DNA of 64,000 nt from an uncultured bacterium. GTDB lineage: Bacteria; Cyanobacteriota; Cyanobacteriia; CAZCXK01. Below the pieces are notes generated by a model. The model was given only the letters and a program-made list of their open reading frames with translations, was not told the origin of the DNA and made no database searches. Both the position numbers and the translations under genes were made by a program. The stretch lies in the NCBI GenBank assembly GCA_964502605.1, contig CAZCXK010000003.1:19476-83475 (forward strand), given 5' to 3'. This document shows positions 9,144 to 49,977 of the stretch, piece by piece; position 1 is the stretch's first letter, and each line of letters opens with the position of its first letter.

Positions 9144-10811
9144 CTACGCAAAGCTCCTGGATCGTTTCAAGCGTCGCCGTTTTTTGCTGTGGCGCGCATC
9201 GGCCTCGTCGGCCTCAACGTCTTCTTGCTGATCAAGCGTCGGCAGTCTCAGTACAACCCCCGCGAAAAACCAGTAGTAAACCGCGACGGGGTCAACATCT
9301 AGGGGGTAATAGTAGGTGTTGTAACTAATAAAGAGCACATAAACCCAGAAGGATGCGCCATAGCTGCGGAGAGTCGGATCGCGCACAGACCGATAGGCCT
9401 TAAACGTTTGAATCGTCAACATGGTCACAAGTGCTAAGAAACACAGCACCCCCAATGGCCCAATTTCATAGAGGACTTTGGGATAGTAAGTTTCGATCAG
9501 CGTTGTTTCTCCCAGTGCCCGCGCCGAATTGGTGGCCCGACCTAAGCCATTGCCAAAAATGCCATTTTGCGATCGCGCCACCCACTCAAACTGACCAACG
9601 ATAAACTGCTGGGGTGGTGAGGCCGCCCAGCGAGATTGAAAGCTAGTAATCCGTTCTTGCATTACCTCTGGGTTGCGAGCAGCAGTGATGCTTAGCAAGA
9701 TCGTGAGAACAAATGCAATTGGCACAAAGCGCTTGAGATTGGCAATTTGCCCTGTCAAAATCAGCAGCAGCACAACCGCCACCGGCACCAGCGCCATCGC
9801 AATTCGCTGACCAGAGAGCACCGACATCACAAACACTGATCCCAGAGCTAATAGGCCCATCGTGCGCCATCGCGCCGTTGGGTCATTAAAGGCGCAGGCA
9901 AACGAGAGAAACCCGGCTGAGATTAGAAACCAACCCCATTGCCATGGAGCCACAAACGTTCCTGGCAAACGAATCTGATTATGTTGAGGGCTATAGAGCA
10001 GTGCGCCCCCGACTAGACAGCGTGCGTTGAGCGACGCCCTAAATAGTTCTGCGCCTTGCTCAAACTGAGTGCCTTCACATCGACCTGTTTTCAAAAATAG
10101 ATATTGGGCAAACCCAAGCGCACAGCAAATCAAAATCAACAAAACGGTGAGGCGCATCAAGAAAAATAAATCTCGTTTGCTGCGCAGGAGATAGTAGGCA
10201 CACACAATCAGGGGGACATAGCCAATCAAAACCTTAAAGCCTAAGATTCCTAATAAAATTGGCTGTTCGCCGCCAGCACTCAACTGTTGACTCCCATTGA
10301 CAACAAGCAGCGTAATCATGCAAACCGATAGCAGAGCCATGAGGGGCAGCATCAGTGGCTTACATACGATGATGGGCAGATTTTCTCGGCGACAATATTG
10401 AATGACACCAATCAGCGCCGGAATGTAGAAGCCATCTTTAGCTAGTTGCAATAATGGGCTGTTGCCGATGCTGTAAGTAATCGTGCCGCCAAAGGGCAAA
10501 TAAATCAAAAATGCCCACAATGCATGTCGGGGATAGCGAAACGATAGCGAGGTATAAAGCACGCCTACGGCTGTACCAAGGCCAGCTTTGGGTTCGGCTA
10601 CTAACCCAATCAAAAACCCGATCAAGGCTGAGAAGAAGACGGCAAAGGCTGTAAAGCTGATGATTTCTTTGCGCAGGCGATCGCGCTTTTTCTTTTCAGT
10701 CAATCGCTCTTTCAACGTCAGCGCTGGCTTCTCTGACTTATTCTGTGTTGTTTTGCTTGACTTTTTTGAGCGTAACCGTCGCCCTGAAGAACCTGACCCT
10801 GCGATCGCCAT
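9144..10811 (-). CDS. Polytopic membrane protein, O-antigen ligase/polymerase (Wzy/WaaL-like) family candidate
   Basis: 555 aa with at least 10 predicted transmembrane helices and a Lys-rich cytoplasmic N-tail. It sits at the end of a three-glycosyltransferase block. Assignment is by architecture and context, not by a strict motif. Confidence 0.5.
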   Translation of the reverse strand: MAIAGSGSSGRRLRSKKSSKTTQNKSEKPALTLKERLTEKKKRDRLRKEIISFTAFAVFFSALIGFLIGLVAEPKAGLGTAVGVLYTSLSFRYPRHALWAFLIYLPFGGTITYSIGNSPLLQLAKDGFYIPALIGVIQYCRRENLPIIVCKPLMLPLMALLSVCMITLLVVNGSQQLSAGGEQPILLGILGFKVLIGYVPLIVCAYYLLRSKRDLFFLMRLTVLLILICCALGFAQYLFLKTGRCEGTQFEQGAELFRASLNARCLVGGALLYSPQHNQIRLPGTFVAPWQWGWFLISAGFLSFACAFNDPTARWRTMGLLALGSVFVMSVLSGQRIAMALVPVAVVLLLILTGQIANLKRFVPIAFVLTILLSITAARNPEVMQERITSFQSRWAASPPQQFIVGQFEWVARSQNGIFGNGLGRATNSARALGETTLIETYYPKVLYEIGPLGVLCFLALVTMLTIQTFKAYRSVRDPTLRSYGASFWVYVLFISYNTYYYPLDVDPVAVYYWFFAGVVLRLPTLDQQEDVEADEADARHSKKRRRLKRSRSFA

Positions 10812-11056
10812 GACTTATCACCCAATGTGCCAACAGATTTGATGCGTTCCCGATTGGGGTCGTGTGGTCAGTAGTTTAGACACACCACATCACTCAACAC
10901 ATCCAACACTGTTGAGTCTATGAAATCTCACGTCAATAATTTCCCGCGATTGCAATATCTTTATCGACTCTTTGTAATCGACTTGTTAATTCACATGTCG
11001 CTCAGCGTGTTGATAGACTGATTTGATGCGGCGATCGGTTCCCGTAAGGGTGTGAA

Positions 11057-12340
11057 TTAGAGCATCTCTCGACCGAGATAGGGCTGCAAAGCGTCTGGAA
11101 TGTGCACGGTGCCATCAGCTTGCTGGTAGTTCTCTAGAATGGCCGACATGGTGCGGCCAACGGCTAACCCTGACCCATTGAGCGTGTGAACAAATTGTGT
11201 TCCTCTTTTGCCCGCTGCCTTAAAACGAATGTTGCCTCGACGCGCCTGAAAATCTTGACAGTTTGAGCAACTCGAAATTTCTCGATAGGTTCCAGATGAA
11301 GGCAGCCACACTTCTAAGTCGTAGGTTTTAGTGGCGGCAAAGCCTAAGTCGCCCGTGCACAGCTCAATCACCCGATAGGGTAACTTCAGCGCTTGTAAAA
11401 TGCCTTCAGCATCTTGAGTCAGGCGTTCGTGCTCATCGGCTGACGTATCGGGATGCACGAATTTATACATCTCGACTTTATTAAACTGGTGCAGCCGAAT
11501 CAGCCCCCGTGTGTCGCGGCCATAGCTCCCAGCTTCGCGGCGAAAACAGGGTGTAAATGCACAGTAATGAAGGGGCAAATCATCAGCAGTGAGAATTTCA
11601 TCACGATGGAAGCTCGTCAGTGGCACCTCCGCCGTTGGTGTTAGCCATAAATCATCGCGATCGCACTTAAAGCTTTCATCGGCAAACTTTGGCAGTTGCC
11701 CCGAAGCGGTTAATGACTCAGTGCTGACCAAAAATGGCGGCATGATCTCGGTATATCCAGCGGCCACATGGCGATCGAGCATAAACTGGATTAGCGCCCG
11801 CTCGAGCGCAGCCCCTGCACCCACCAGTGAGACAAAACGGCTTTGGGCAATCCGCGTTGAGCGTTCAAAATTGAGAATACCCAGTTTTTCTCCCAGATCC
11901 CAGTGGGGCAGCAGTGCCGCCGAATCGGCTGGCAGATACTCATCTCCCCAGCGCCGCACCTCAATATTCTCGGTTTCATCGCGGCCAGTGGGCGTCGTCT
12001 GGCCAGGAAGATTGGGCAATGCTAACAGTTTGGCTTCAAGCACCGCCTTCAGGTCTCGTTCTTGAGGTTCTAGCTGACTCAGTTGCGCTTTGATCTGGTT
12101 GCCTTCGGTTTTCAGCGCGGCGATTTCATCACTCTGAGGGCTAACACCTGACTTGATCTTCTGGCCTACGGCTTTGCCAATTTCATTGCTGCGAGCCTGA
12201 AGTTGCGATCGCATTCCTTCTAATTCTCGCTGGCGTTGGTCAAGCTCCAGGATGGGCTGCAACTCGTAGCCGGGGCCCCGCAGGTTGAGGCGGGTTTGCA
12301 TCTCGTCTGGCTGGTCTCGGATCTGCTTGATATCTAGCAC
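11057..12340 (-). CDS. serS: Seryl-tRNA synthetase
   Basis: 427 aa. The N-terminal coiled-coil arm ([22 protein letters not shown]...) and class-II core motifs ([30 protein letters not shown]) are typical SerRS. Confidence 0.9.
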
Positions 12341-12623
12341 GAGGGTTCTCTAATTGGCGATCGCTTACTCAATGTTTACAACACTATAATGCCGTCAGGC
12401 AACAAGTGGGAGCCCTGTACATCTTTGCTTTTCAGTGCAGATGTTTGCAGCGTAGATTCTGTTTATGGGAGGATGCCCATAAGCTGTGACGAAGACTGGG
12501 CAGTACTGTACTGCTGCTACCGGCGTTGTCTTTTTCGGTGACCATCTCCTGGCTCTACCTCAAACGCAACAGCACATTGGAAATGGGCTTCGTGCTCACG
12601 ACTCGTCCGCTGCTCTGAGTAGG

Positions 12624-13943
12624 CTACCCGCCCGTCAGCAAACGGGTTTGCCTCAACAGAAATTGTAAAAACGTTTCTTCTCGCGAGATGATGTTTGCCT
12701 CCGCCTGCATACCAGCCTGCAACTGACATGGCCGCCTGTTGCGGGGTGTCGTTTGGATCAGGGTAATAGCGTCAGGTTGCAGCGTCACTTCAAAGTAGCT
12801 GGCGAGACTCTCCGGGCGATCGCCCCCCACCTCTGATCGACTCACATCAGGGGCGATCGCGGAGACCGTTGCAGCTAACGTGCCATAGTCAGGAAACGGG
12901 CAGGCTTCGATGCGGAGCTGCGACAATTGTCCCACCTGCACCCGATCAATGTCTTGGGTGTCAACTCGGGCCTTAATCACTAAATTTTGGGTGTTGGGGG
13001 CAATTTGGGCCACCACGTCCCCTGCCTGCACCACTTGATTGGGATTGCGCAAATTGAGTTGAAACACCGTGCCCTCAGTCGCAGCTCGAATGATAGTCTT
13101 CACCAAATCGGCGTCTACTTGCTGCAAGTCTTGCTGGGCCTGCAGCAACTGGGCCTGCAGCTCAGCTTGATTTTGCAACAGCAGTTCTTGTTCGCGCTGC
13201 AAGGTCGCTAGGGTGGCCCGACCTCGCGACTCTTCATGCAAAATTTGCTGTTGGGCGATCGCCACTCCCGCATCAATTGGGTTTAACGCCGCCCGTGCCC
13301 GCCGCACCTGAGCCATTGCCGTTTGGACTGCTGCCCGCTTTTCGTCGAGTTGCAGTTGAGAAACCGCCCCTGAATCAACTAACTGCTGATATCGCTGCAC
13401 TTCAACAGTGGCCAGATCCAATGCAGCCTGTGCTTCTGCGAGGTCGGCCTCAGTGGTCGCCTGCTGTTCACTCAACTCGCGCTGATTGCGATCGAGTTCT
13501 GACTGAGCCGTTGCGACAGTTTGGGCGATCGCCCTGGATTCTGACGCCATCTGCGCCCGCATCAGCTGGATTTGAGTTTCCACCTGGGCTCGTTGAATCT
13601 GTAGTTGCTGAACACCGCCCTGCAACTGCTGCTGTTGTGAGTTGAGTTGGGTGGGGTCGAGGCGGGCGATCACATCTCCCTGCTGCACAGTTTGATTAGG
13701 CTGTATGTCAATACTGGCAACAGTTCCCGTTAGTGCAGACTGCACCACGCGCAGCTCTCCGGCTGGGCGAACAGTCGCAGGGGCTCTGACAGCAACGTTG
13801 TAGGTCACGATCGAGGCTAGCCCCACAGCCAACCCCACGGCACCGATGAGCAATCCCCCTCCGACAATTATCCAGCGGCTAACCGGGGGAAGAAACTCGT
13901 CAACTTGAAGCGATCGCAAGGGTGAAGGTTTGGGATTGAACAT
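12624..13943 (-). CDS. HlyD-family membrane-fusion/periplasmic adaptor protein of a type I (bacteriocin-type) export system
   Basis: ATG at 13943 (MFNPKPSPLRSL...) precedes one N-terminal transmembrane helix (WIIVGGGLLIGAVGLAVGLASIV). A very long Q/A-rich coiled-coil follows, then a C-terminal beta domain. It lies directly downstream of the C39-ABC transporter. The six-frame ORF extends to 14111 and would overlap the transporter gene. Confidence 0.8.
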   Translation of the reverse strand: MFNPKPSPLRSLQVDEFLPPVSRWIIVGGGLLIGAVGLAVGLASIVTYNVAVRAPATVRPAGELRVVQSALTGTVASIDIQPNQTVQQGDVIARLDPTQLNSQQQQLQGGVQQLQIQRAQVETQIQLMRAQMASESRAIAQTVATAQSELDRNQRELSEQQATTEADLAEAQAALDLATVEVQRYQQLVDSGAVSQLQLDEKRAAVQTAMAQVRRARAALNPIDAGVAIAQQQILHEESRGRATLATLQREQELLLQNQAELQAQLLQAQQDLQQVDADLVKTIIRAATEGTVFQLNLRNPNQVVQAGDVVAQIAPNTQNLVIKARVDTQDIDRVQVGQLSQLRIEACPFPDYGTLAATVSAIAPDVSRSEVGGDRPESLASYFEVTLQPDAITLIQTTPRNRRPCQLQAGMQAEANIISREETFLQFLLRQTRLLTGG

Positions 13944-14011
13944 GGGATGAAGCCAGGTAAAGTGGCGCGAAACAGGTGAGAAAGAAAGGGAAAGGGCGAG
14001 AGGGAGACGTT

Positions 14012-16153
14012 TTATACCATCAGAAACTCTAAGTGATCGCCCATGTGTTCCCGTAGTTGATCGGGTGTGCCTTGCCGTTGCAGTTTGCCATTGTCTAGAA
14101 AGACAATCCAATCTGCTAGCTTAATCACGTTGGGACGATGGCTGATCAAAATAGTGGTTTTGCCCTGGCGATATGCCAACACACTTTTTAGGACATGTGC
14201 TTCACTGACGGGGTCTAATCCAGCGGTCGATTCGTCTAGCAGCAGCACAGGTGGATGGTTGATCATGGCACGGGCGATCGCCAACCGCTGCTTTTGACCT
14301 CCTGATAGATTCGAGCCAAACTCTCCCAAAATAGTTTGATACTTTTCGGGCAACCGCCCGATAAACTCATCGGCTCCCGTCATTTCACAGGCTGCAACTA
14401 GATCCTCAAAGGTGAGATGCGGATTGCCCAACCGAAAGTTTTCAATGATAGATCGGCTCCAGAAGTGGGCGTCTTGTGGCACCAAAACAACCTGTTGTCG
14501 AATGCACTCTAGAGCCAGATCATCTAAGTTGTAGTGCCCCATACGAATGTTGCCCGACTGCAACGCATAGAGTCCGGCAATGACCTTGGCCAGAGTGCTT
14601 TTACCACAGCCCGACTTGCCAATCAATGCCGTCACCCGCCCCGCCGGAATGGTCAGCGAGAAGTCGTTCAGCAAATCTACCCGCCCTGGATAATGAAAGC
14701 GCAGATCAGTACAAACAATATTTGCCACCTGAATTTCTACCCAGGGCTTTTGGGAGTCATGCTGGGTTTCAGGGGTGGCTTTGATCACCTCATCCAGCCG
14801 GGTGCTGGCCGTTTGCACGCGAATCCAATCATCGACCACACCCACAAGTTCATCAATCAGCGCGGTAATATTGCGGTTGAGTGTCGTGAAGGCCAGCAAC
14901 TGCCCGATGCTGAGTTCTTGATTAATCACCAATAAGCCACCCAGCCCTAAAATCGCGGCACTGCCAATATCTGCAACGATTTCACTAAACGTGCTATTAA
15001 AAATGCTGATGCGCGTCGTGCTCAGCATCAAGTTGGCCAGCCGCCCAAAGCGGCTTTGCATCTCATCCCAAAACTGATGCTCGGCGGCAGTTGTTTTCAG
15101 CGTCAGTGCGCCCTTGAAGGTTTCTACTAAGACGCCCTGTGTCTCGGTTTCCAACACCATCTCACTGCGGGTTTTCTGTCGCAAGATGGGCTGAAACACG
15201 ATAGTTGAAAGAGTCATTAAGACGGCCACAACCAGCGCCACTGCGGTCAGTTTCCAACTATAAAACAGCATCAGCCCCAGTGAAACTAGAGCAATCAACA
15301 CCGTGCTGGGCAGATTAATGATCACGCCTGAAACTAGCCGATTAATTTCTTCAATATCGCGCAGGCGGCTGACCACTTCTCCACTGCGGCGTGTTTCATA
15401 ATAAGTGAGGGGCAGGCGCAAAATCTGCTGACCAAACTCCAACACAAAACCCAGTTCCAGTCGTTGAGCAAAGTGAGCAATCAGATTGTCGGCCACCAAG
15501 CCTAAGCCACTTCTCACCAGATACATCAGCACAACCGCCAGCACAATGCCCAGCAGCAGGCGCGTGTCGCCGCGAATCAACACATCATCCGTCAAGATTT
15601 GGATAAAGAAAGGGGACGCCAGTGACAGTAAGCCAATCAGCGTGACACATAGCAACGATTCTAGTAAGATGCTGCGATAAGGTAGCAGTCGCCAGAGAAA
15701 CTGCCCCACACCGGTTATCGGGTCATCAGACTGGTGATAAAAGCGGCTAGGGTCTGGCTCAACCAGCAAAATCACGCCATCATGCCAGTCTTCTCTCAGC
15801 TCGGCTTCAGAGAGATAGCGCACACCCACGGCAGGGTCGGCAATCACATAGGTTTTTCCCCGCTTGCCATATAAAATTACCCAATGTTTGCCCCGCCAGT
15901 GAATCACAGCAGGCAGCGCGATGTCATGGAGGCGATCGAGAATTTCAGGAGAGGCGATCGCCGATCGGGCAAAAAATCCTAAGGCTTCACTGCCGCGCCG
16001 CAAGCCCAGCAGTGTCGTACCCAACTGTCCTGTTCCCACGGCTTCACGGGCGCGGCTGAGGCTAAATGTGCGCCCATAGTGTTTGGCAATGGAGGCCAAG
16101 CACGCGGCTCCACAGTCTTCTTCGCTGTGCTGCAAAACCAAGGGATAACGCAT
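14012..16153 (-). CDS. Peptidase-C39-containing ABC transporter (PCAT; bacteriocin/RiPP processing and export ATPase-permease)
   Basis: N-terminal C39 domain with the catalytic Cys in EEDCGAACLASIAKHYG and His in GKHWVILYG. Six transmembrane helices follow. The C-terminal ABC ATPase has Walker A GKSGCGKST, signature LSGGQKQRLAIARA and Walker B LLLDE. Confidence 0.85.
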   Translation of the reverse strand: MRYPLVLQHSEEDCGAACLASIAKHYGRTFSLSRAREAVGTGQLGTTLLGLRRGSEALGFFARSAIASPEILDRLHDIALPAVIHWRGKHWVILYGKRGKTYVIADPAVGVRYLSEAELREDWHDGVILLVEPDPSRFYHQSDDPITGVGQFLWRLLPYRSILLESLLCVTLIGLLSLASPFFIQILTDDVLIRGDTRLLLGIVLAVVLMYLVRSGLGLVADNLIAHFAQRLELGFVLEFGQQILRLPLTYYETRRSGEVVSRLRDIEEINRLVSGVIINLPSTVLIALVSLGLMLFYSWKLTAVALVVAVLMTLSTIVFQPILRQKTRSEMVLETETQGVLVETFKGALTLKTTAAEHQFWDEMQSRFGRLANLMLSTTRISIFNSTFSEIVADIGSAAILGLGGLLVINQELSIGQLLAFTTLNRNITALIDELVGVVDDWIRVQTASTRLDEVIKATPETQHDSQKPWVEIQVANIVCTDLRFHYPGRVDLLNDFSLTIPAGRVTALIGKSGCGKSTLAKVIAGLYALQSGNIRMGHYNLDDLALECIRQQVVLVPQDAHFWSRSIIENFRLGNPHLTFEDLVAACEMTGADEFIGRLPEKYQTILGEFGSNLSGGQKQRLAIARAMINHPPVLLLDESTAGLDPVSEAHVLKSVLAYRQGKTTILISHRPNVIKLADWIVFLDNGKLQRQGTPDQLREHMGDHLEFLMV

Positions 16154-16173
16154 GGAATATGGAGAACCGAGAA

Positions 16174-17250
16174 CTAGATGAATTCATTGAGAACCGAATA
16201 GCGATCGCCCGAATCTGGGTTGAGATAGGGCTGAGCGAGATCAATCTGATGGTGCTCAAACTGCTGCATGATGCAGTGTAGGCGATGGGCTGGTGTTTCA
16301 TCCCCTAGGGCTCTAGCAACTAAGAGCCCTTGAGCAACTAGCTGGCAGCGCTGTAAGCCAAAGTCAAGCGTGTCGTCATCGTCGGGGTCTTCTGCTAAGC
16401 CGATACCAGGTGCTAGCGGTTTCATAAACAGAGGAATAGCGGCATCAAGGTGCGATCGCCCCTGGTGATAAAACTGCTGCAATGGCACATAAATATCTGC
16501 ATAGCGATCGCGTTCGATCTGCAAAATAACTGCATCGTAGCGCCCATACTCTGCCGGATCATAAAGCGCTTTTAAGCTAAACGGCAGATCAGCGGCATTT
16601 AAGGCGGCGGGAATGTGCTGCATCAGGGCGATCGCCCCCACAGCACTTAGATTGAAGCAAATCTCAAGGCTGCTAGCCTCTTCGGGCACGAGTCCGGCAT
16701 TGCCCACGGCCACATAAAACCCCGCCTCTAGCCGGTTTTTTGGTAAGCGAATGGCCACCCGCTCACCCACATGGGCGGTCTGTTGAGCAGGATGGAGGTG
16801 GCGATCGCGCTCAATATGCACCGTCAGGTCTTCTTTTTGCACCGCCAAACTGCCGTCAGACTCTTGCCGCACAATGCTCCAGTCTGGATCAAAATATCCC
16901 TGCCCCGGATTGGCCTCATGCAATTGGGCATAAAAGTCGCGATTGACGCCTCGCAGCAGCTCATTCTTGAGCGGCGGCACTGGAGCAGCATCGGCCTCTA
17001 GCTCTAGCTCATGGCTGAAGTAAATGTCGTAAAGATAATCCCGTAGCTTTTGCTGCTGCAAGCGCTGCTGAAACGGAGTCGGCAGTTGCCGATAACAGGC
17101 AAGGACAGTCTCCGGCAGGTCTAAGGGCGGATAGGAAGCCTGCCAGATCTGAAAATCGGCGGCAATTTGAAGATGGGTGGCAATCTCAGTCAACGTTGCC
17201 ATCGTGGGAGTGGGAGTTAACACAGCAGGGGGCGAGGAGAAAGGCATCAT
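16174..17250 (-). CDS. Hypothetical 358-aa protein co-operonic with the kinase-like gene; candidate peptide-modification partner (possibly HopA1-like lyase-type), function unverified
   Basis: No motif I can name with certainty. It is tightly packed between the kinase-like gene (57-nt gap) and the PCAT gene (20-nt gap). It is soluble and acidic, with a DPDDDD patch. Confidence 0.35.
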   Translation of the reverse strand: MMPFSSPPAVLTPTPTMATLTEIATHLQIAADFQIWQASYPPLDLPETVLACYRQLPTPFQQRLQQQKLRDYLYDIYFSHELELEADAAPVPPLKNELLRGVNRDFYAQLHEANPGQGYFDPDWSIVRQESDGSLAVQKEDLTVHIERDRHLHPAQQTAHVGERVAIRLPKNRLEAGFYVAVGNAGLVPEEASSLEICFNLSAVGAIALMQHIPAALNAADLPFSLKALYDPAEYGRYDAVILQIERDRYADIYVPLQQFYHQGRSHLDAAIPLFMKPLAPGIGLAEDPDDDDTLDFGLQRCQLVAQGLLVARALGDETPAHRLHCIMQQFEHHQIDLAQPYLNPDSGDRYSVLNEFI

Positions 17251-17307
17251 AAGACAGCAAGAACCATAAGACTATCAGAACTGGAGCGGGCGATCGCCCC
17301 TGACGGA

Positions 17308-18492
17308 TCAAACTGGGAGCAACGGAGAAACCAGTTCAGACGCAGAGAGGCCCAACACTGCTGGAATTGATGGCTCTGGTGTAGACAACAAGGTTTTTGC
17401 AACTTGCAGCAAACAAATGCCTCGGTTGCCAAAAGGTTCTAGATAATAGAGCCGGGCTCGAATCGACTCTATCAATGCTAGCCCCGCAAACTGCATTATC
17501 CGCGTTAGCACATCGGGGCGGGCATTGACCAACGCCGGAAACTGCGTGAAATATGCGCGCAAAAATGCAATCATCGACGACTGGAGTGTTTCGAGTGGTG
17601 TGGTGGCAGACCGCAGAGACGTTTGCATATCGAGATCAGGGCTTACTACTAAACTCTTGAGCCAAATTTTGAGAAAATCTGCAATAATCATGCCGACATC
17701 ACTAGCCGGATCGCCCCAAATCCATTTTTCCCAGTCAATGAAGCGAATCGCAGGCTGGGGTACCCCAGCCTGTAAGTGAGACGACAGACCATCCCAATCG
17801 GTGTGCAACAGAATGTTGGTAAACTTCAAATCATTGTGGGTCAGACAGCAGGGAGTAAACGCTTTATTTAGAGCGGCGATCGCCCCTCCTAAGCTGTCAT
17901 AGCGCTGATACAGTTCATAAAATTTCAGCCCATCAGTAGCCACATTGCCAAAGATTTCAGGCGTAATTCTAGCCAGCCCATGACTCAAATCGGGAGGCTG
18001 ATCGAGTGGGTCATCGTCAAGCTTGCTCAGCGTTGTCTGAAACGTGCCGTGGTGAAACGTGGCCCTATGAACGGTTGCTAAGGCAGTACCTAAGGCCTTA
18101 GCAACCGCATCTGGAAATATCTGGTTGTGTTCATAAAACTGGTCTAGGTCACTATAGTTGTTGAGATAGTGAAACACCAAAATGGCATTTTCCGCATCCG
18201 CATCAATTGCAACTGAAAGCAGGGATTGCAGCTTGGCCAAATCAACATGCGATCGCATCCCTCGATAAAGCTGCCATTCATGCTCCAAATCTCGACGGGT
18301 GTTGCCCGCTTGATCATGGGGCTCTTGCTTGACTAGAAGAGAGCGATCGCCCGCTAAATGGACGAGTAAATTGAAGTTCTTAAAGATTTTAGGCTCAATG
18401 GTCGCACCCCGAAGGTCTGCGTTCGTGCAAAGATTTCGAGTGATTAAATACTCTAAAACAGTATCAGTTCCAAGAATTAAAGGCATTTTCAC
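17308..18492 (-). CDS. Protein-kinase-fold phosphotransferase (APH / CotS / choline-kinase-like family)
   Basis: An N-terminal lobe with a conserved Lys context (LLVKQE) is followed by the catalytic-loop motif HNDLKFTNILLH (compare HGDLhpgNil) and the downstream IDWEKW (compare IDWE), as in aminoglycoside-phosphotransferase-type kinases. Confidence 0.65.
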   Translation of the reverse strand: MKMPLILGTDTVLEYLITRNLCTNADLRGATIEPKIFKNFNLLVHLAGDRSLLVKQEPHDQAGNTRRDLEHEWQLYRGMRSHVDLAKLQSLLSVAIDADAENAILVFHYLNNYSDLDQFYEHNQIFPDAVAKALGTALATVHRATFHHGTFQTTLSKLDDDPLDQPPDLSHGLARITPEIFGNVATDGLKFYELYQRYDSLGGAIAALNKAFTPCCLTHNDLKFTNILLHTDWDGLSSHLQAGVPQPAIRFIDWEKWIWGDPASDVGMIIADFLKIWLKSLVVSPDLDMQTSLRSATTPLETLQSSMIAFLRAYFTQFPALVNARPDVLTRIMQFAGLALIESIRARLYYLEPFGNRGICLLQVAKTLLSTPEPSIPAVLGLSASELVSPLLPV

Positions 18493-18657
18493 TCCAGTCG
18501 CCGTAACACCCAGATATCATTTAATACTAGATTGGTTCCGTTTTTTTACATAAAAAAGCAAGGTCTTGATCATAGCTTTTTACCGCGTGATCAGCCCTGC
18601 TTTATGATTAAACTAGCACTTAACACGCCCTCAATTGATCATCGAGAAATGCCTGAC

Positions 18658-18954
18658 TTAGGTGCTGCTATTGCTGCGGCTGCGACCCGCTCGTAGCCGA
18701 CGCAGCCTGCGACGACGACGAAGTCTCCTGCGGCGGCGGCGAAGTCTCTTGCGACGGCGATCGCTTCTGCTAATAGATTTTTTACCTCCACCAATCATAG
18801 ACTCATCTTCTTCAGATAAGTCTTTCAAAAGGCTATCAGCGCCTAACAATAACGCTGAGCCAATTGCATGCTGATCAAGATCTACAGTTTCAATCATGGC
18901 TATATCTCCACAATTACTAACAGCTTCGACCGATTTAGAAGCTGATTTATTCAT
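18658..18954 (-). CDS. Candidate precursor peptide: 57-aa leader ending in a double-glycine motif (LKDLSEEDESMIGGG) followed by a 41-aa hyper-basic Arg-rich core
   Basis: The ATG at 18954 begins the operon. The leader matches the LSxxE(L)xxIxGG consensus cleaved by C39 peptidases. The core (KKSISRSDRRRKRLRRRRRRLRRRRRLRRLRAGRSRSNSST) is about 60% Arg. The plus-strand ORF 18662..18874 is its antisense shadow. Confidence 0.5.
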   Translation of the reverse strand: MNKSASKSVEAVSNCGDIAMIETVDLDQHAIGSALLLGADSLLKDLSEEDESMIGGGKKSISRSDRRRKRLRRRRRRLRRRRRLRRLRAGRSRSNSST

Positions 18955-19042
18955 TGATTTTTTCTTCTTCTTTAAGAATAAACCTTAAACTTAGAGGCAT
19001 GTCTCTTCATGAGAAACTTCTCACAGTTTCCTAATCGTGATC

Positions 19043-19495
19043 TCATCTAAAAATGAGGCGTTGGTAAGAAGCAAGATGAATTAGGCAGGAACAGGGACAT
19101 CCCTGAACTTGAGGTAATGGATCAACAATCGGATAGAATGCTACAGTCCAGATCCAGATCTTATTTTGCTTTTTGCCTACAAAAGTCTCCAGTTCATCCA
19201 GTTCCCCCACTTGGGGGATTTCCTTTGGGTCATAGCTGTCCGGTAAGCGTTCCCCAGCCTGTGCAATCCAGTTCAAAATCGTGGTGTGGGCAATATTTGT
19301 CACACGGCTGATGCTGCGTACGCCCATACCATTGACATACATTCTCAAGCACAACTGTTTCACGTCATCGCTATAGCCTTGGCAGTCATAATGATCGAGA
19401 AACTGCCGTCCGCAGTTCACGCAAATGTAGTTCTGTTTCTGCTTTCGATGCCCATTTTTGCGAATATGTTCTCCACCACAATCAGGACATTTCAT
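19043..19495 (-). mobile_element. Truncated IS1-family transposase fragment (InsA-like zinc-finger/HTH part plus the first residues of the InsB-like catalytic part)
   Basis: CPDCGGEHIRKNG...YICVNCGRQF zinc finger, an HTH (GMGVRSISRVTNIAHTTILNWI) and then GELDELETFVGKKQNKIWIWTAV, which resembles the InsB N-terminus. The ORF ends after 150 aa, so the DDE domain is absent and the element is an inactive remnant. Confidence 0.6.
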
Positions 19496-19729
19496 CTGTG
19501 CTCCTCTCCTCTCGGTATGCTCCTCTCATGTTGTGGCTTTTGGGCTGCCTAAAACATTTAATTCATCTGTCAATTTACCAACGCCGATCAATGAGTAACC
19601 GCTCTGAGGCTTGAACAGGCTGCACATCCGTAAATAACCGATGGTCTTCCACGATCGCTAACCCAAATGTTGCCTGCACCTGAGCCAAGGTGAAATCGCT
19701 GTATGCCCTCCTCTTGTTCTCCTCAGTCG

Positions 19730-20386
19730 TTAAACACTGGCAGCGGGTTGAAACTGAGTCATCAACCAGGCTCCCACCTGGGATTGGTCTTGGCTGCGGC
19801 TGCGTTGCAGCGCTTCGTCTAGAGTCGCCATCTCCAGCCCTGGAAACATAAGAGAACTATCAATCCGCTGGCTACCGCGATCGCTCATCTGATAAGCCCA
19901 CACGTCTGCCGTTTCCACCTTCACAATCCAATATTCAGCAATGCCCATCTCTTCGTAGAGCACCCGCTTCACCGTGCGATCGTCCAACAGTGACGATTTC
20001 GCTACTTCTACCACCAAATCTGGCACTGGATACTGATCCAGATTGACAACATCGGTGCCACTAGGAATCGCATTCGCCTTAGCACCCACGTAATAGGCTA
20101 AGTCGGGCTGAAATTCTGCATAGCCCGTCCTCCGGAAAGAACAGTTATCTAACTCTGTAAATGCGATCGCCCGCAAAATGCTGAACAAGTTAATGGCCAG
20201 GGAAATTACACTGTGATCTTTACTGTGGTCAAATCCTACGGATAGTTGCATTTCTAATCGCATCCACCCATTGCTGTAATAGCCCTTAGATTTGGCATGG
20301 GCGGGGTCATCCAAGGCGCGGAGGTATTCTTCCCAGGTAGCAGGAATCCAAGTGTCGCTGGGAATCAAGGTAGAAGGTTGGTTCAT
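19730..20386 (-). CDS. Uma2-family (DUF820) putative restriction-endonuclease-like protein
   Basis: 218 aa with the common cyanobacterial Uma2 pattern (WEEYLRALDDP...GYYSNGWMRLEM...PDLAYYVG...PDLVVEV). Confidence 0.65.
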   Translation of the reverse strand: MNQPSTLIPSDTWIPATWEEYLRALDDPAHAKSKGYYSNGWMRLEMQLSVGFDHSKDHSVISLAINLFSILRAIAFTELDNCSFRRTGYAEFQPDLAYYVGAKANAIPSGTDVVNLDQYPVPDLVVEVAKSSLLDDRTVKRVLYEEMGIAEYWIVKVETADVWAYQMSDRGSQRIDSSLMFPGLEMATLDEALQRSRSQDQSQVGAWLMTQFQPAASV

Positions 20387-24096: not shown

Positions 24097-27000
24097 CTAG
24101 AAAGTTGTTCCAATCATGCTAAGTAGATATTTATGTACCAACGTTTCATCAACATTTGGACAGACGATTCCACTACCACGCAACGCTGTAAGAGTCTGTT
24201 GGCAATCAAATATCTGGCTACCAGATAGCCAACCTTCTAATCGACCTAGCTGCTGCTTTGAGATCGAGCCAGGGTCGGTGATCATTTGGGCTAATGGGCC
24301 AAGAGCAGAATCATGGGTCTGAATCAGAGCTTTCCAATGCTGATAGGGAACCTGCTCAACAGCGTAGCCCAAGCGATTCATCTGGTGAACAACATGATCA
24401 AACACAATCGGTTGAGGATTAACCAGATGAAATGACTGACGAAACGAGGTCGGCTGACGAGACAGATAGACCGTCGCTTGGCTGACATAGTCAACCGGAG
24501 TCATATCAACTTTAAAGTCGAGCTTGGGAGCCACCTTAAGCTCAAGAAAACTTTTGAGCAAGCGCCATAAGACATCGTCTGGATTGCAAATACCACTGGC
24601 TTGACTGCCGCTAATCATGCCAAGGCGATAAATACAGATTGGTAGCCCCGCTTCACCGGCACGGGAGACTAACTGTTCGGCAACCCACTTGCTTTGAGCA
24701 TAGCCTCCTGTAATTTTCTCTCCTTGGGCGATCGCCTCATGTTCATAAATGGTGGCATCACTTATTGCCATGCGAGCCTCAAAGACATCTAACGTAGACA
24801 TAAAATGTATTGGCTTGAGCTTGCCATGGTTAGCAAACGCCAAGATTGACCTAGTTCCGACCACATTCACAGCTTTGAGCGCAGCATAGGGAAGAACCAG
24901 GTTGACGTTAGCGCCGCTGTGATAGACCACATCGACCGTCGTAGCTAAGGTTTGAAATGTATTTCTCGGCAATCCGAAGAGCGGTTGCGCCAAATTGCCC
25001 ACAACAGGGATGATGCGAGAATAAAAGGGATTCAGATCAAGTTTATATTTCTGAGCGGTTTGGCGGAGCTTTTGATAAGCTTCCGTCAAATTTTGAGCCC
25101 GAATGAGGCAATAAATTGTAGCGTCTGTCTGCTGCAAGAGTTCCAACAAGATGGCAGCACCGATAAATCCAGTAGCCCCCGTTAGTAGAACTGACTGGGG
25201 AACCGTCCAGTGAGTTTGATCTGCGACCTTAGCCTTGAGGGTAAAATCTAACGTCGCCTCAGCCTGTAACTGAAGCAGCGTTACTTGCTTAGGGATAGCT
25301 GATACGGCGGGACTCTGAATTTGCTGAGCCAGACCACTGATGGTAGGTCTATGAAAAAATTCCTCCAGCGACAGGCTAACTTGATGAGTCTGTTCGACAT
25401 GAGAAACTAACTCCATCAACCGGAGTGAATTGCCGCCTAACTCGAAAAAGTTATCGTGTAGACCAATCGCTTCAATTTCTAGCACCGTTGACCAAATCAT
25501 CGAGAGGTCTTGCTCAAGAGGAGTGGTGGGCGCGACAAAGTCCACATCTAAGTCAGGCCTGACCTGACCCGGTGTAGGCAACGCCTGGAAATCGATCTTG
25601 CCGTTAGGTGTTAGAGGCACCGAGTCAAGCGTGACAAATGCCGAAGGCACCATATAGGCAGGTAGTTGCTGCAGCAAATAGGAGCGTAGTTCTCGGGAAA
25701 GGTAATGTGCTGCCTTTTCCTGGAGTGGATTATTAGCATAGGACTGCCAAGATCGTTGGGTTCGACAACTCTGAGGCGACAATGATGCGATTGGTAATAG
25801 TTGCACATCACCATCCAGTGGCGATCGCCGCTTAATCAAGACATCATACGATCCTTCTACTCCACCTGCGGCCCAACTCAGTGTGACGTCATATGGCACC
25901 TCTCCCAAGCGGTGCCATAGGTCTTCTGGATTAACTCCCTTAGAGGAAGTCTGGTGTGTGAGGGCTTGCCTGAGTTCTCCCACCGTTATGGGGCAAGCCT
26001 CCTGACGCAACATCTGCAATGCCCAGACAGCTGCTAACACCCGTGCATTTGGAACCTTGTGAATGCCCAAGACTGGAGGAGGGCATTCACCATTTAGCAG
26101 GTGGTGTAACGCGGGCACCGTCAGTTGATGTTGTTGCCAGTCTAGCCAGGGATACTCCTCTGGAATCAAAAGCTCAGCATCAATCCGCAGGATGGCGTCA
26201 TAGCGAAACTGAGTCAGCTCATTCTCAAACTCACCTCGTTTCAACAGCACTTGCACCTGGCTAACTTGCGGCAGATGCTGCTGAAGAGCACTAAAAAATT
26301 CGGGATCAAGGGTCAGTTCTCCTTCCTGATCAAGTCGCTTTTGAATGCGATCGCGCAGAACATCAGTTGACATATCATCAGGAGCTTGAAACAGCTCAAC
26401 GGACGCAGCAAAGGTTTCTTGCAAGACATAGTTGCGAATGTCTCCAATGAAAATGACGCCGCCCGGTTTAACTAGTTCGACCGCCTGCTTGATGACCCGT
26501 AGGAGATAGGCAACACTGGGAAAATATTGAATAACAGAGTTAATAATAACCGTATCAAACGACTGGGGTTCTAGCCCTTCTAAGCGATCAGCCATCCGCT
26601 GTTCCAGCACAACCTGAGGTAGATTTACAGACGGATGGTTGAGTTGCTGGTTGACATACTCTAATGCAGCTGTAGAGAAATCGATGCCAACATATCGCAG
26701 ACAAGAGGGGGCAATGCGAAAAAGCAAGAGCCCTGTGCCACAGCCAATTTCTAAAACCTGTTGAGGCCGATAGGTCAAAATTCGCTCGACTGTGTGGTTG
26801 ACCCATTCATGCATTTCACAGTCAGGGATGAGTGCTTCGGTATAGCTACTCATCCAGCCGCTGATGTTAAATGTACCGTCCCAGCCTGATTTAGCAGGAT
26901 TTAGATAGTCATCACTGTGAATGAAACGCCATTGCTTAATTTGCTCTGCTTCTAGTTGAGAAAGTCCAGCCTCGTTCAGGTGCTTCCGGTCAGTCAAAGC

Positions 27001-28401
27001 ATTCACAACATAGGCAACCAGATATTTGCCTCCCAAAGTATCGTCTCTGGCCACAACGATGGCCTCTTGCACAGCAGCATGTTGCGCTAGAACTAGTTCA
27101 ATTTCTCGCAGCTCAACGCGAAAGCCACGAATTTTTTCCTGGCGATCGCCCCGATCTAGAAACTCTAGATGCCCATCAGAGCGAGATCGCACCCGATCGC
27201 CAGTCTTATAAAGACGAACTGGAAGGTTGCCATGTAAACTCACAAACACAAACTGTTTGGCCGTCAGCTGCGGACAATTGAGATAGCCCCGAGCCAAACC
27301 GGCTCCGCCAATGTAGAGATCGCCAATTTCACCAGGACGAACGGGTCGTCTATCTACATTCAGAACATAGGTTTGAATATTGGAGAGCGGCAACCCAATT
27401 GGCACTAGTTCAGTATCAACAGCAACGGCATTGGAGCCAACTAAGTCGCAGCAGGTTGCAATCACTGTCGATTCGGTGGGGCCATAGGCATTGATCAGCC
27501 TTACCTGAGGGCTCACATAGGCCTTCCACAGGTCTAGCCATCGAGGCAGTGCTCGTTCTCCACCAATCAACACCAAACGAATCGTAGATGGAAAAGGGAT
27601 AGTTGTTAAGCCACCACACAGTTTGTGCCAGAAAGCTGTTGATAGGTCTAATACCGTTAGTTTTAAAGTATCGCACGCACTGAAAAAAGCAGACACAGAA
27701 TGGAGCATATCAGGAGAACGCAGCACAAGTGTCGCCCCTTGTGTCAGAGTAATGAAAATTTCCTCAACTGCGTGATCAAAACTAATTGACGAAAATTGTA
27801 AGACGCGATCGCCCGCTACAACCCCATAGGCATCTCCTGCGGCTTGGGCAAAATTGACCAAGGCTCGATGTTCAATCATCACGCCTTTGGGCCTGCCAGT
27901 GGAGCCTGAAGTATAAATAACATAGGCCAGATTGTCGGGAATTGCCAGCGGTTCAGGGTTTTGCGCGGGTTCTTGAGCAATGCGCTCCCCATCAGTTTCT
28001 AAACAAACAACCTTAGTTGGATACGCTGAAAACCATGAAGCCAAAGGATGCTGGCACAACATCACTGCAACTTGTGAATCACCCAGCATCACGGCTAAGC
28101 GTTCTTCAGGATAGTCAGGATCAAAGGGCACATATGCGCCACCCGCTTTGAGAATGGCTAGCACCCCTACAATCATGGCAGGCGATCGCTCAAAATGGAG
28201 ACCAACCAACACCTCTGGAGCAACATTTAATCGTCGCAAATAGTGAGCCAGACGATTAGCCTGCTGGTTTAACTCATCATAAGTCAGATGCGTATTACCG
28301 GAAATTAGGGCGATTGCATCGGGAGTTTCAGAAACCGTTGCTTCAAACCATTCGTGAATGCAAAAACTGTAATCCTTCGTAGGATGGGAGAAGATAGACA
28401 T
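24097..28401 (-). CDS. Single-module non-ribosomal peptide synthetase-like enzyme: adenylation domain with embedded SAM-methyltransferase, then PCP, then a C-terminal thioester reductase (A(MT)-T-R)
   Basis: A-domain core motifs YTSGSTGRPKG (A3), NAYGPTESTV (A5), GEIGDLYIGGAGLARGY (A6), YKTGD (A7) and GRxDxQxKIRGFRVEL (A8). An inserted methyltransferase carries VLEIGCGTGLLL. Motifs A9/A10 follow (LPAYMVPSAFV...NGKID), then PCP (FFELGGNSLRLMEL) and a reductase Rossmann motif (LLTGATGFIGAAIL) in an SDR-like domain. Confidence 0.85.
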   Translation of the reverse strand: MSIFSHPTKDYSFCIHEWFEATVSETPDAIALISGNTHLTYDELNQQANRLAHYLRRLNVAPEVLVGLHFERSPAMIVGVLAILKAGGAYVPFDPDYPEERLAVMLGDSQVAVMLCQHPLASWFSAYPTKVVCLETDGERIAQEPAQNPEPLAIPDNLAYVIYTSGSTGRPKGVMIEHRALVNFAQAAGDAYGVVAGDRVLQFSSISFDHAVEEIFITLTQGATLVLRSPDMLHSVSAFFSACDTLKLTVLDLSTAFWHKLCGGLTTIPFPSTIRLVLIGGERALPRWLDLWKAYVSPQVRLINAYGPTESTVIATCCDLVGSNAVAVDTELVPIGLPLSNIQTYVLNVDRRPVRPGEIGDLYIGGAGLARGYLNCPQLTAKQFVFVSLHGNLPVRLYKTGDRVRSRSDGHLEFLDRGDRQEKIRGFRVELREIELVLAQHAAVQEAIVVARDDTLGGKYLVAYVVNALTDRKHLNEAGLSQLEAEQIKQWRFIHSDDYLNPAKSGWDGTFNISGWMSSYTEALIPDCEMHEWVNHTVERILTYRPQQVLEIGCGTGLLLFRIAPSCLRYVGIDFSTAALEYVNQQLNHPSVNLPQVVLEQRMADRLEGLEPQSFDTVIINSVIQYFPSVAYLLRVIKQAVELVKPGGVIFIGDIRNYVLQETFAASVELFQAPDDMSTDVLRDRIQKRLDQEGELTLDPEFFSALQQHLPQVSQVQVLLKRGEFENELTQFRYDAILRIDAELLIPEEYPWLDWQQHQLTVPALHHLLNGECPPPVLGIHKVPNARVLAAVWALQMLRQEACPITVGELRQALTHQTSSKGVNPEDLWHRLGEVPYDVTLSWAAGGVEGSYDVLIKRRSPLDGDVQLLPIASLSPQSCRTQRSWQSYANNPLQEKAAHYLSRELRSYLLQQLPAYMVPSAFVTLDSVPLTPNGKIDFQALPTPGQVRPDLDVDFVAPTTPLEQDLSMIWSTVLEIEAIGLHDNFFELGGNSLRLMELVSHVEQTHQVSLSLEEFFHRPTISGLAQQIQSPAVSAIPKQVTLLQLQAEATLDFTLKAKVADQTHWTVPQSVLLTGATGFIGAAILLELLQQTDATIYCLIRAQNLTEAYQKLRQTAQKYKLDLNPFYSRIIPVVGNLAQPLFGLPRNTFQTLATTVDVVYHSGANVNLVLPYAALKAVNVVGTRSILAFANHGKLKPIHFMSTLDVFEARMAISDATIYEHEAIAQGEKITGGYAQSKWVAEQLVSRAGEAGLPICIYRLGMISGSQASGICNPDDVLWRLLKSFLELKVAPKLDFKVDMTPVDYVSQATVYLSRQPTSFRQSFHLVNPQPIVFDHVVHQMNRLGYAVEQVPYQHWKALIQTHDSALGPLAQMITDPGSISKQQLGRLEGWLSGSQIFDCQQTLTALRGSGIVCPNVDETLVHKYLLSMIGTTF

Positions 28402-41302: not shown

Positions 41303-41368
41303 GCTCTGGGCGATCGCCCAACGACTATAGTTCAAACATTACCCACATCTCGAACTCAAGCAAGCACA

Positions 41369-48225: not shown

Positions 48226-49977
48226 GTGCTGTATTTAGCAGAAGTACAGAAGAAGACCAGAGTAATTGGAAGCGGCAAAGTTGAATTCAAACTACTAGCT
48301 TGTCAGCGGTCTGAAAACAGCTGGAGTGCTATTGGCGAAGAAACAATTCCCGCTCCTGACGATGTGAACTATAACTCTGGAGCCTTGGTCATGGTCGATT
48401 TGTCTACTAATCGCCAAGTCCAGCGACATATGGAGGCAGGACGCCAACTCGTCAGTATCTTACAAAATTTTTCACGACTGCAGGAAAAGTTTAAAACTCA
48501 AGAAGAAGAAATCGAACAGTGGAAGCAGTCGCTAACTTATCAGAGTCAAGAACTTAATCGTCGGGAAATGGAGATGGAAGCCCGACAAGAGCAGCTTCAA
48601 CAAATGGAAGAAGACTTTGAACGCCTAGAGCAACAGCGCCAAGAGATTGAAGCAGCGCGTGAGGAAGCCAATCGGTTGCAAGAAGATTTTTCTCGAAAAA
48701 CGCAAGACCTTGAAGGTGCATGGGCCCATTTAGACGGCGAAAAACAGCGTCTAGAAGAACAACGGGAGCAAATTCAGCAGAAGCCAGGGTTAGACGGAGA
48801 ACAAGCCCGACATATTCAAGAATTGCTGTACCGGATTTCAAGTACTGTGGCTCCGACAGAATCTGTTCGAGATCACCTACGTATTTCCTTTGAAATTGTG
48901 GAACAGCAACAAGGAAATTTAGATCAATATTGGCATACTCTAGAGACGCAGCACGCTTCGGCTCAACAGCAGCAAGATGAGGTCAACCAGCAAGGGCAAG
49001 AGATCCACGAATGTTGGCAGCAATGGCATCAAGCGCAAGAATCTCTCGAACAGGCTCGTGCTGAATTGGGCTGGCAAAAGAGTGCTTTGGACGCAAAGCG
49101 CGATGCCGTCCAGGCATTGACGTCTCATGTTCAGCAACAGACCAATTTATATGAACAAACTCAGCAACTGGCCGACACTGGGGTTGGCTCCATTGCGCGG
49201 GTTGATGTGGAAGCGCTTGAGAAAAAGCCGCTTGGTCAGCTGCAGTCAACTGTTGAAGATCTAGAGCAAGAACTAGAGAAAAATTCTCGGTTTGTCAGTA
49301 GCCAAGAAGAAGAGTTATCACTTCAGCGAGAGGAGATAGAAAAGCTCCAGGTGAAGATGCAGCAAGCGAGTGAGTATGATCGGCTCAGCTTAGAGGCTCA
49401 GATTGCTGATGAGCAGGAGAGCTATCGCATGCTCAATGAGACGCTGGTTGGTCAGCGGCGCAACTTACAGGAGAGAGAAGCCGTTTTGAAGCAGCATCAA
49501 ATTATTCTCGCGCGTCGCCAAGGTCTGCCTCTAGAGACAGGCCAACCCAACACCATCAATGTAGACCCACTACTTAGACAAATTGATGCCATTCGGCAAC
49601 ATCAGATTCAAGAATTGCAAAAGTTGGAGGAGCAGGTGCGACAACTGCAGCTATCTGTGGATGAAGCGGAGCACCGGGTAACCCATCAAACGCAAGCTCA
49701 AGAATCTACTCTGAATGATTTGAAACAGCTAGAGCAAGATTGGAGGGCTAAGAATGTAGCGGTTGCAGAGTTGTGGAGCAAGCTCAACACGTATGAGGAG
49801 GTGCTACAGCCCGTTCAAGCGAGTCTCAATAGTCTCCGAGAGAAGCTAGATGCGATCGCCAATCTGATGGCTCAGTTTCAAGAGTCGAGTGACTACCAGT
49901 TGCAGTCGATCAATGAAATGCAGCAGCAAGTTCAGCAGTTGACTGATGCCGTATCCCCTGAGCTGGCAGCATCATAA
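48226..49977 (+). CDS. hmpF: Coiled-coil protein, HmpF-like (pilus/motility polarity factor encoded divergently from the hmp/pil chemosensory operon)
   Basis: A roughly 100-aa globular N-terminus (MLYLAEVQKKTRVIGSGKVEFKLL...) is followed by about 480 aa of Q/E/L-rich heptad coiled coil. It is divergent from the PatA-type regulator gene, the same arrangement as hmpA/hmpF in Nostoc punctiforme. The symbol is given on architecture and synteny only. Confidence 0.5.
   Translation: MLYLAEVQKKTRVIGSGKVEFKLLACQRSENSWSAIGEETIPAPDDVNYNSGALVMVDLSTNRQVQRHMEAGRQLVSILQNFSRLQEKFKTQEEEIEQWKQSLTYQSQELNRREMEMEARQEQLQQMEEDFERLEQQRQEIEAAREEANRLQEDFSRKTQDLEGAWAHLDGEKQRLEEQREQIQQKPGLDGEQARHIQELLYRISSTVAPTESVRDHLRISFEIVEQQQGNLDQYWHTLETQHASAQQQQDEVNQQGQEIHECWQQWHQAQESLEQARAELGWQKSALDAKRDAVQALTSHVQQQTNLYEQTQQLADTGVGSIARVDVEALEKKPLGQLQSTVEDLEQELEKNSRFVSSQEEELSLQREEIEKLQVKMQQASEYDRLSLEAQIADEQESYRMLNETLVGQRRNLQEREAVLKQHQIILARRQGLPLETGQPNTINVDPLLRQIDAIRQHQIQELQKLEEQVRQLQLSVDEAEHRVTHQTQAQESTLNDLKQLEQDWRAKNVAVAELWSKLNTYEEVLQPVQASLNSLREKLDAIANLMAQFQESSDYQLQSINEMQQQVQQLTDAVSPELAAS

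Follow-up and report, generated by a model that had tools for sequence, protein, structure and literature searches.

A candidate LanK/LanY-type peptide dehydratase with a variant lyase active site in a cyanobacterial polyarginine peptide operon

Introduction

The closest described relatives of the system reported here are LxmK/LxmY and CaoK/CaoY, two kinase and lyase pairs that have been shown experimentally to form heterodimers (PMC12141560; PMC9486802). CaoK/CaoY phosphorylates Ser and Thr residues iteratively in vitro and then eliminates the phosphate (PMC9486802). LxmK is insoluble without LxmY (PMC12141560). A phosphotransferase together with a HopA1-like protein, namely TsaC/TsaD and TvaC/TvaD, is also required for Ser/Thr dehydration in thioamitides (PMC8153245). 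Here we analyse a pair of adjacent genes, encoding a kinase and a 358-residue HopA1-family protein, in a 64-kb stretch of DNA (64,000 nucleotides, hereafter the window) from an uncultured cyanobacterium (GenBank assembly GCA_964502605.1, contig CAZCXK010000003.1, positions 19,476 to 83,475). We put at roughly 0.55 the probability that the two proteins form a split LanK/LanY peptide dehydratase in a minimal five-gene operon for a peptide made by the ribosome and modified after translation (RiPP).

Enzymes of this kind are known and characterised, and their cyanobacterial clusters were catalogued in 2021. Eyles et al. found a phosphotransferase adjoining 96% of 1,340 HopA1-domain proteins, and grouped 570 double-glycine precursors from 183 clusters into a cyanobacterial 'Family 1A' whose product is not known (PMC8153245). 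Polybasic peptides are already listed, uncommented, in RiPPER families 103 and 118 of their supplement, with examples from filamentous cyanobacterium CCP1, Cyanobium PCC 7001 and Scytonema; a link between core charge and active-site change is not mentioned in the main text (PMC8153245). No characterised cyanobacterial product of a kinase/HopA1 pair was found in the literature. What is new here is the polyarginine, Cys-free substrate and the accompanying change in the lyase active site, a link that provides a concrete structure-function hypothesis for LanY lyases. With one precursor, two enzymes and one exporter, the operon is close to the smallest possible test case. Its predicted product, a polyarginine peptide of +23 charge in which the Ser blocks at the two ends are modified, is unusual in its chemistry and raises the question of how the producer tolerates and exports such a peptide.

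Results

The 358-residue protein (positions 16174–17250, minus strand) belongs to the Pfam HopA1 family (PF17914, E=2.4e-42) and has the fold of a phospho-Ser/Thr lyase of the LanY type. Its sole significant sequence match among solved structures is chain B of 9DK1-3 (9dk1_B, E=7.8e-10; 2.2e-14 with a profile), which corresponds to LxmY, the lyase half of the LxmK/LxmY dehydratase for lexapeptide (PMC12141560). An AlphaFold2 (AF2) model built from 76 homologues reached a predicted local distance difference test score (pLDDT) of 93 and a predicted template modelling score of 0.89. Foldseek ranked LxmY first for this model (E=2e-19, template modelling (TM) scores 0.68/0.76). The first-pass annotation, made from the letters of the DNA, had raised the possibility of a phosphorylation/elimination pair and called for the fold of the 358-residue protein to be checked; the model places it with a lyase of the HopA1 family.

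The partner gene (17308–18486, minus strand) encodes a LanK/LxmK-like Ser/Thr kinase with the aminoglycoside phosphotransferase (APH) fold, recognisable by the motifs CCLTHNDLKFTNILLH and IRFIDWEKW. It matches the NCBIfam model 'class V lanthionine synthetase subunit LxmK' with E=3.8e-21 and 75.5 bits. In sequence searches against the PDB, phmmer with the kinase alone found nothing, and a profile of its clade matched LxmK no better than at E=0.018. The structural comparison was clearer: the AF2 model (pLDDT 87.7) has LxmK (9dk3_A) as its top Foldseek match (E=8e-13, TM 0.69/0.78), followed by methylthioribose kinases, PsiK, choline kinases and TvaE. The Lys, the Glu, the HxDxxxxN loop and the metal-binding Asp expected of a LanK enzyme are all intact, which bears out the earlier reading of an intact APH-type loop (HNDLKF...N...IDWE). 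Within the clade, K55, E72, H219, D221, N226, D253 and E255 are invariant and N220 and K223 nearly so, and all eight catalytic positions are intact in 17 of the 18 kinases from loci with polybasic cores. The specificity positions of the kinase differ between clades by a charge shift of just -2.

Searches with hidden Markov models (HMMs) found one kinase match and one HopA1 match in the whole window. Since both proteins best match the two chains of one heterodimer, they are read as a split LanK/LanY-type dehydratase, in agreement with the modification pair suggested at first pass. The similarity is distant, with about 17–21% sequence identity between the window pair and LxmK/LxmY or CaoK/CaoY. 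Shared features are the APH-fold kinase, the HopA1-family lyase, a ribosomal precursor with a leader, and the catalytic Lys and second Arg of the lyase.

The operon is read from the minus strand in the order precursor, kinase, lyase-like protein, C39 peptidase-containing ATP-binding cassette (ABC) exporter and HlyD adaptor, as taken from the open reading frames (ORFs) of the window. The first-pass placement of the two enzyme genes between precursor and exporter, 57 nucleotides apart, is matched exactly by the ORF coordinates (gap 17251–17307), and the lyase-like ORF is followed by the exporter ORF after 20 nucleotides. For the kinase, the ATG at 18486 is the most likely start codon (392 residues), with GGAG 5 nucleotides upstream; a GTG at 18492 would give 394 residues. 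A separate gene call on an identical 17.7-kb contig gave 392 residues for the kinase, 357 for the lyase-like protein and 439 for the adaptor. With 195 homologues of the 358-residue protein (best non-identical E=2e-158) and 1769 of the kinase at E<=1e-10, both ORFs are real genes.

The 713-residue exporter (14012–16153, minus strand) combines a C39 peptidase, a permease and an ATPase (Pfam Peptidase_C39 2e-32, ABC_membrane 2e-34, ABC_tran 8e-32; NCBIfam TIGR03796 E=1e-129). The motifs QHSEEDCGAAC and KHWVIL...ADP, which hold the catalytic Cys and His of the C39 domain, are readable in its sequence. The HlyD-family periplasmic adaptor (12624–13943, minus strand) has 439 residues from its ATG, the longest ORF beginning at 14111, and matches HlyD_3 (Pfam, 1.9e-16) and TIGR01843 (NCBIfam, 8.8e-47). 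A double-glycine leader (...EDESMIGGG), a C39-ABC protein and an HlyD protein are what export of a double-glycine peptide calls for, and the exporter is expected to cut after the GG and carry the peptide out.

The precursor gene lies upstream of the kinase (18658–18954, minus strand). Its longest ORF has 98 codons; the true start is most likely M20 at 18897, which has GGAG 8 nucleotides upstream and yields a 38-residue leader as in the homologues. The leader MIETVDLDQHAIGSALLLGADSLLKDLSEEDESMIGGG (18784–18897, minus strand) is acidic, with a charge of about -8, and ends ...LLKDLSEEDESMIGGG, a double-glycine cleavage motif, after which the Arg/Ser core begins. A leader HMM has one match in the window (E=9e-15), making this the sole leader-like ORF. 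Homologous leaders occur at related loci (L001, L003, L012, L115–L121; numbering of the loci compared below), and the motif F/L-L-K/R-D-L-S-E/A-E-D-E-x-x-I-x-G-G is kept in all loci of the clade.

Cleavage behind MIGGG would leave the 41-residue core KKSISRSDRRRKRLRRRRRRLRRRRRLRRLRAGRSRSNSST (18661–18783, minus strand), with an unmodified monoisotopic mass computed at 5313.24 Da and a charge of about +23. It contains 21 Arg, 3 Lys, 7 Ser (positions 3, 5, 7, 35, 37, 39 and 40), 1 Thr (position 41) and no Cys. Described at first pass as a 'Ser-rich RS-type core', it is dominated by Arg more than by Ser. Its layout of SxSxS, poly-Arg/Lys and SxSxS/T is shared with L001, L003, L012, L081, L115–L118 and L121. 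Because the SxSxS blocks are conserved, the Ser and Thr residues are the presumed modification sites. A 21-nucleotide tandem repeat of 2.6 copies (18706–18760) encodes the RRRRRxL heptads of the core. An antisense Arg/Leu ORF of 70 codons (18662–18874, plus strand) was rejected as a gene, being a mirror image that the repetitive CGN/AGR codons create; the conserved leader is found on the minus-strand frame only.

Downstream of the precursor stop and ahead of the kinase start, a hairpin followed by a U-run (18555–18603, minus strand) may act as a partial terminator or attenuator, and could set the ratio of precursor to enzymes. The 121-nucleotide region that was folded has an energy of -30.8 kcal/mol (z=-2.5). 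The hairpin was not among the terminators listed by a consensus terminator scan, and promoter and terminator counts in a consensus scan of 12000–19800 were not above those of shuffled sequence.

The operon is bordered by an IS1 fragment, Uma2, porin, NUDIX, serS and glycosyltransferase genes. The IS1-family transposase remnant (19043–19495, minus strand) lies directly upstream of the precursor and is truncated to 150 residues (NF033558, E=1e-40, with 119 of the model's 199 positions covered); it may have displaced the native promoter region. A Uma2-family putative endonuclease (19730–20386, minus strand) lies beyond it.

The active site of the 358-residue protein departs from that of the characterised lyases. 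Its description draws on a review (PMC12141560) and on CaoY mutagenesis (PMC9486802). CaoY R187, K219, R229 and Y236, which were examined or singled out in that mutagenesis work, were mapped to LxmY R189, K221, R231 and Y238 (chain numbering, identical spacing) and from there to the homologues. The window protein has E196, K227, R237 and Q244 in place of the LxmY R-K-R-Y tetrad, so that two of the four residues are kept; the full tetrad is present in 91 of 130 locus-encoded homologues. In CaoY, the R187A mutation nearly abolished elimination (PMC9486802).

Relative to the canonical clade, the window subclade has fixed the changes Q175E, R196E, N231D and S296D. Q175E lies three residues before the Phe aligned to LxmY F169, which is described, with one other residue, as guarding the active site (PMC12141560). 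N231D adjoins K227 and S296D adjoins an invariant FG motif, so that the clade-specific acidic residues E175, D231 and D296 all stand beside catalytic motifs. In the AF2 model, residues 175, 196, 227 and 244 are located on consecutive strands (172–175, 194–199, 224–229 and 241–246). The net charge of the whole HopA1 homologue shows no difference between clades (-9.7 versus -10.4, p=0.72); charge adaptation of the lyase, if real, is local.

Variation of another kind is seen among homologues that keep the first Arg. In 17 of 165, Gln replaces the catalytic Lys (FSFQVLYNP), often with His for the Tyr, as in P0091, P0094, P0106, P0108 and others from Anabaena, Cylindrospermum, Richelia and Calothrix. 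Variation at the lyase site is thus not confined to a single cyanobacterial lineage.

Scanning one genome per species yielded at least 583 loci that encode relatives, nearly all cyanobacterial, and the neighbourhoods of the best 80 of these were compared. At every locus whose captured sequence includes the upstream flank, the kinase gene sits directly upstream of the HopA1 gene; L007, L014 and L073 gave no kinase match. A C39-ABC/HlyD pair is usually near. L003, L012 and L081 encode both enzymes as one fusion protein of 812–819 residues. The kinase and lyase genes thus co-occur, and by analogy with the characterised heterodimers their products would form a complex. Nine sister loci (L002, L003, L012, L114–L116 and L118–L120) have the same five-gene order, L001 and L117 match the window as far as the exporter, and the order of precursor, kinase, HopA1, C39-ABC and HlyD holds in all retrieved loci of the poly-Arg subclade as far as the contigs reach. 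The window exporter is 68–79% identical to those of L001, L002, L003 and L012, versus about 33% to those of canonical loci. A scan of metagenome contigs with the alignment of the Glu-containing clade found no relative above 45% identity.

Core charge follows the first Arg of the lyase. Precursors were located at each locus with the leader HMM. In all 68 scorable canonical loci, which have the first Arg, cores contain at most 19% Arg+Lys, with a mean of 2.4 precursors per locus. In all 18 scorable loci that have E, A, N, D or Y instead, the core is 24–61% Arg+Lys and built of Arg-Ser (RS) or Lys-Ser (KS) repeats, as in DRSNSRSDRRPRRRPRRRPRRNRSRSRT, ARSRSNSRRAVVRRRRAAARRRRLIRRRRRRVAARRNASSMSFSRT and KGKSKSKSKSKSKSKSKSKSRSGSGSGCCYCH; 17 of the 18 have a single precursor and L120 has three. 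Two loci that were found later served as a prospective test. Their cores are GGGYSSKTSKKGKKKNKSSS, with 35% Lys, and TGGCGSGKSGKNKSKNKNKSGNCGCGCP, with 21% Lys, the latter under the 24% line yet of the same KS/KN-repeat kind.

A Fisher test of Arg loss against polybasic core gave p=6.6e-19, a value that treats kin loci as independent. It overstates the evidence, because all the sequences lacking the first Arg group together in a neighbour-joining tree built without the catalytic columns. The association therefore reflects a single evolutionary change or a few of them, and not 18 independent ones.

Several of the compared loci show features of their own. A sister group of the polybasic clade (L085, L087, L097, L100, L101 and L124) has Lys/Ser-repeat cores that, unlike the Cys-free poly-Arg group, end in a Cys-rich tail (CGCxGYC, CCYCH or CGCGCP), which could serve ring formation or metal binding. 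At L115, two PhyH-family dioxygenase genes just downstream of the operon (10110–12031, minus strand), not conserved in other poly-Arg loci, might hydroxylate the peptide. In several Nostocales loci (Nostoc, Brasilonema, Iphinoe), Cys-rich precursors (SxVCVGGSVACSVIIIGNTCSRT) are followed by a second kinase-like/HopA1-like pair, at 10567–12590 in L015, 10184–12219 in L030, 8684–10710 in L037, 4888–7065 in L039, 9795–11809 in L045 and 10304–12318 in L048. The kinase-like protein of this second pair has about 315 residues and is devoid of the N-lobe Lys and Glu and of the catalytic Asp (H/Y-T-K-N-N-E), and its partner has I-Y-R-R at the tetrad. By analogy with the LanX kinase-fold cyclases, the pair may be a pseudo-kinase/pseudo-lyase cyclase.

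Discussion

The following pathway can be proposed for the window operon as a split LanK/LanY dehydratase system. The kinase would bind the acidic double-glycine leader and phosphorylate the Ser and Thr residues of the S-x-S-x-S blocks at both ends of the polyarginine core; the kinase fold and the intact catalytic residues are seen in the model and the alignment, and the sites are deduced from their conservation. The partner would then eliminate the phosphate to give dehydroalanine (or dehydrobutyrine), a less certain step suggested by homology and fold. In the acidified site, E175, E196, D231 and D296 may bind the Arg or Lys beside each phospho-Ser, and a substrate side chain may replace the lost enzyme Arg. 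Finally, the C39 domain would cleave behind GGG and the ABC/HlyD pair would export a linear peptide of about 5.2 kDa and about +23. No thioether rings would be expected, because the core has no Cys. From its composition only, one may guess that the product is a polycationic peptide that acts against microbes or penetrates cells, or that binds polyanions (DNA, polyphosphate or exopolysaccharide, for example).

Several observations count against dehydration by this pair. The kinase scores 75.5 bits against an NCBIfam LxmK cut-off of 315, and is also under the Pfam APH cut-off. E196 stands at the position of CaoY R187 and Q244 at that of the conserved Tyr (Y236). The column of LxmY R189 is off by one residue in a single-sequence phmmer alignment, although three other alignments concur. 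In the clade without the first Arg the tetrad is no longer among the conserved columns: Lys is kept in 44 of 54 members, the second Arg in 44 of 54 and Tyr in 9 of 54, and the tetrad columns fall at the 31st–91st percentile of column entropy. A tetrad that varies while the partner kinases keep their catalytic sites fits relaxed selection on the lyase chemistry. Substrate-assisted catalysis is a conjecture, and no product has been observed.

Phosphorylation without elimination is the alternative to be weighed most carefully, though we regard it as the less likely. It corresponds to the other outcome allowed for at first pass, a secreted phosphopeptide. An active kinase would be accompanied by a non-catalytic HopA1-like partner whose part is to stabilise the kinase or keep hold of the substrate. 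Up to eight phosphates would mask part of the +23 charge, protect the producer and ease export, and extracellular phosphatases might re-activate the peptide. The changes to E196 and Q244, at positions needed or conserved for elimination, and the variable tetrad beside fixed kinase residues agree with this alternative. The insolubility of LxmK without LxmY makes a purely structural partner plausible (PMC12141560), and phosphorylated RiPP end products are known in cyanobacteria, made by a cyanobactin kinase domain (PMC12639078). However, K227 and R237 (CaoY K219 and R229) are kept here, and each is kept by 44 of the 54 clade members; the AF2 model shows, with high confidence, an intact lyase fold; and all characterised kinase/HopA1 pairs dehydrate their substrate. 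Moreover, the directional changes Q175E, R196E, N231D and S296D resemble adaptation to a cationic substrate, not decay.

Since K227 and R237 have been retained and the pattern of substitutions suggests adaptation and not chance, a remodelled site in which a substrate cation replaces the Arg is slightly favoured over lost elimination. For the clade as a whole, a deep cyanobacterial branch of LanY-like proteins, we tentatively suggest, at somewhat less than even odds, that elimination was rewired or lost when the substrates became polycationic RS/KS repeats. The outcome would be either substrate-assisted beta-elimination or a pseudo-lyase with an exported phospho-polyarginine, in which the phosphates serve as a charge mask that can be taken off.

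A coincidental position of a small-molecule kinase, related to APH, methylthioribose or choline kinases, is highly improbable. Homologues are indeed annotated as aminoglycoside phosphotransferase, thiamine kinase-like or methylthioribose kinase, and methylthioribose kinases are close second fold matches. Against this stand LxmK as the top fold match, the adjacency to HopA1 in the best 80 loci, as far as their upstream flanks were captured, with fusion in three loci, and a placement between precursor and exporter that is kept in every clade locus. The metabolic kinase reading was rejected.

Even less probable is a genuine class V lanthipeptide (lanthidin) cluster with thioether or aminovinylcysteine (AviCys) rings, which we reject: the kinase has LxmK as its best NCBIfam match and both proteins best match LxmKY, but the core (KKSISRSD...RSNSST) has no Cys, the HMM search found no second kinase-fold (LanX-type) gene in the window that could act as cyclase, and no decarboxylase (LanD) or reductase is among the neighbours. 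In the absence of Cys in the core and of LanX, LanD and reductase genes, neither lanthionine nor AviCys could form in the window product. Class V systems also differ in their actinomycete hosts, whereas the window is cyanobacterial and combines a polyarginine, Cys-free core with a double-glycine leader and a C39-ABC exporter.

The locus can be placed further by comparison with other systems. Family 1A shares its phylum, enzyme pair, double-glycine leader and C39-ABC/HlyD export with the window, but has about 2.4 precursors per locus, cores that are neutral or hydrophobic, and a lyase with the canonical R-K-R-Y; the window clade has one precursor, 21–61% Arg+Lys and a lyase without the first Arg. 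In contrast to the thioamitide loci of TsaC/TsaD and TvaC/TvaD, the window has no YcaO/TfuA, decarboxylase or other thioamitide genes, and its precursor is unrelated. The 358-residue protein has no detectable sequence similarity to OspF/SpvC/HopAI1 or to the lyase domains of LanL/LanKC and lacks the Lys104/His106/Lys136 set of OspF/SpvC; the Lys104/His106 pair is absent from LanY proteins generally (PMC9486802). OspF/SpvC/HopAI1 act on host mitogen-activated protein kinases, and the LanL/LanKC lyases are domains of one large synthetase. In composition only, the core is reminiscent of protamines and SR-type Arg/Ser peptides, in which poly-Arg tracts are flanked by Ser clusters that are kinase substrates. 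There is no homology, and the window peptide is bacterial and predicted to be leader-dependent and exported.

Other genes in the window

Elsewhere in the window, a stand-alone nonribosomal peptide synthetase-like protein of 1434 residues (24097–28401, minus strand) has an adenylation, a methyltransferase and a carrier domain and a terminal reductase domain. A hybrid histidine kinase of the CheA type, 1757 residues long (Hpt, dimerisation, ATPase, CheW and receiver domains), is encoded beside a 954-residue methyl-accepting chemotaxis protein (36062–44233, minus strand). Three ORFs of 1099 residues (52664–55963, minus strand), 583 residues (48226–49977, plus strand) and 555 residues (9144–10811, minus strand) match no Pfam family at E<=1e-5. 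The last of these, between serS and the row of glycosyltransferase genes, is closely related to sequences in JGI and Logan data.

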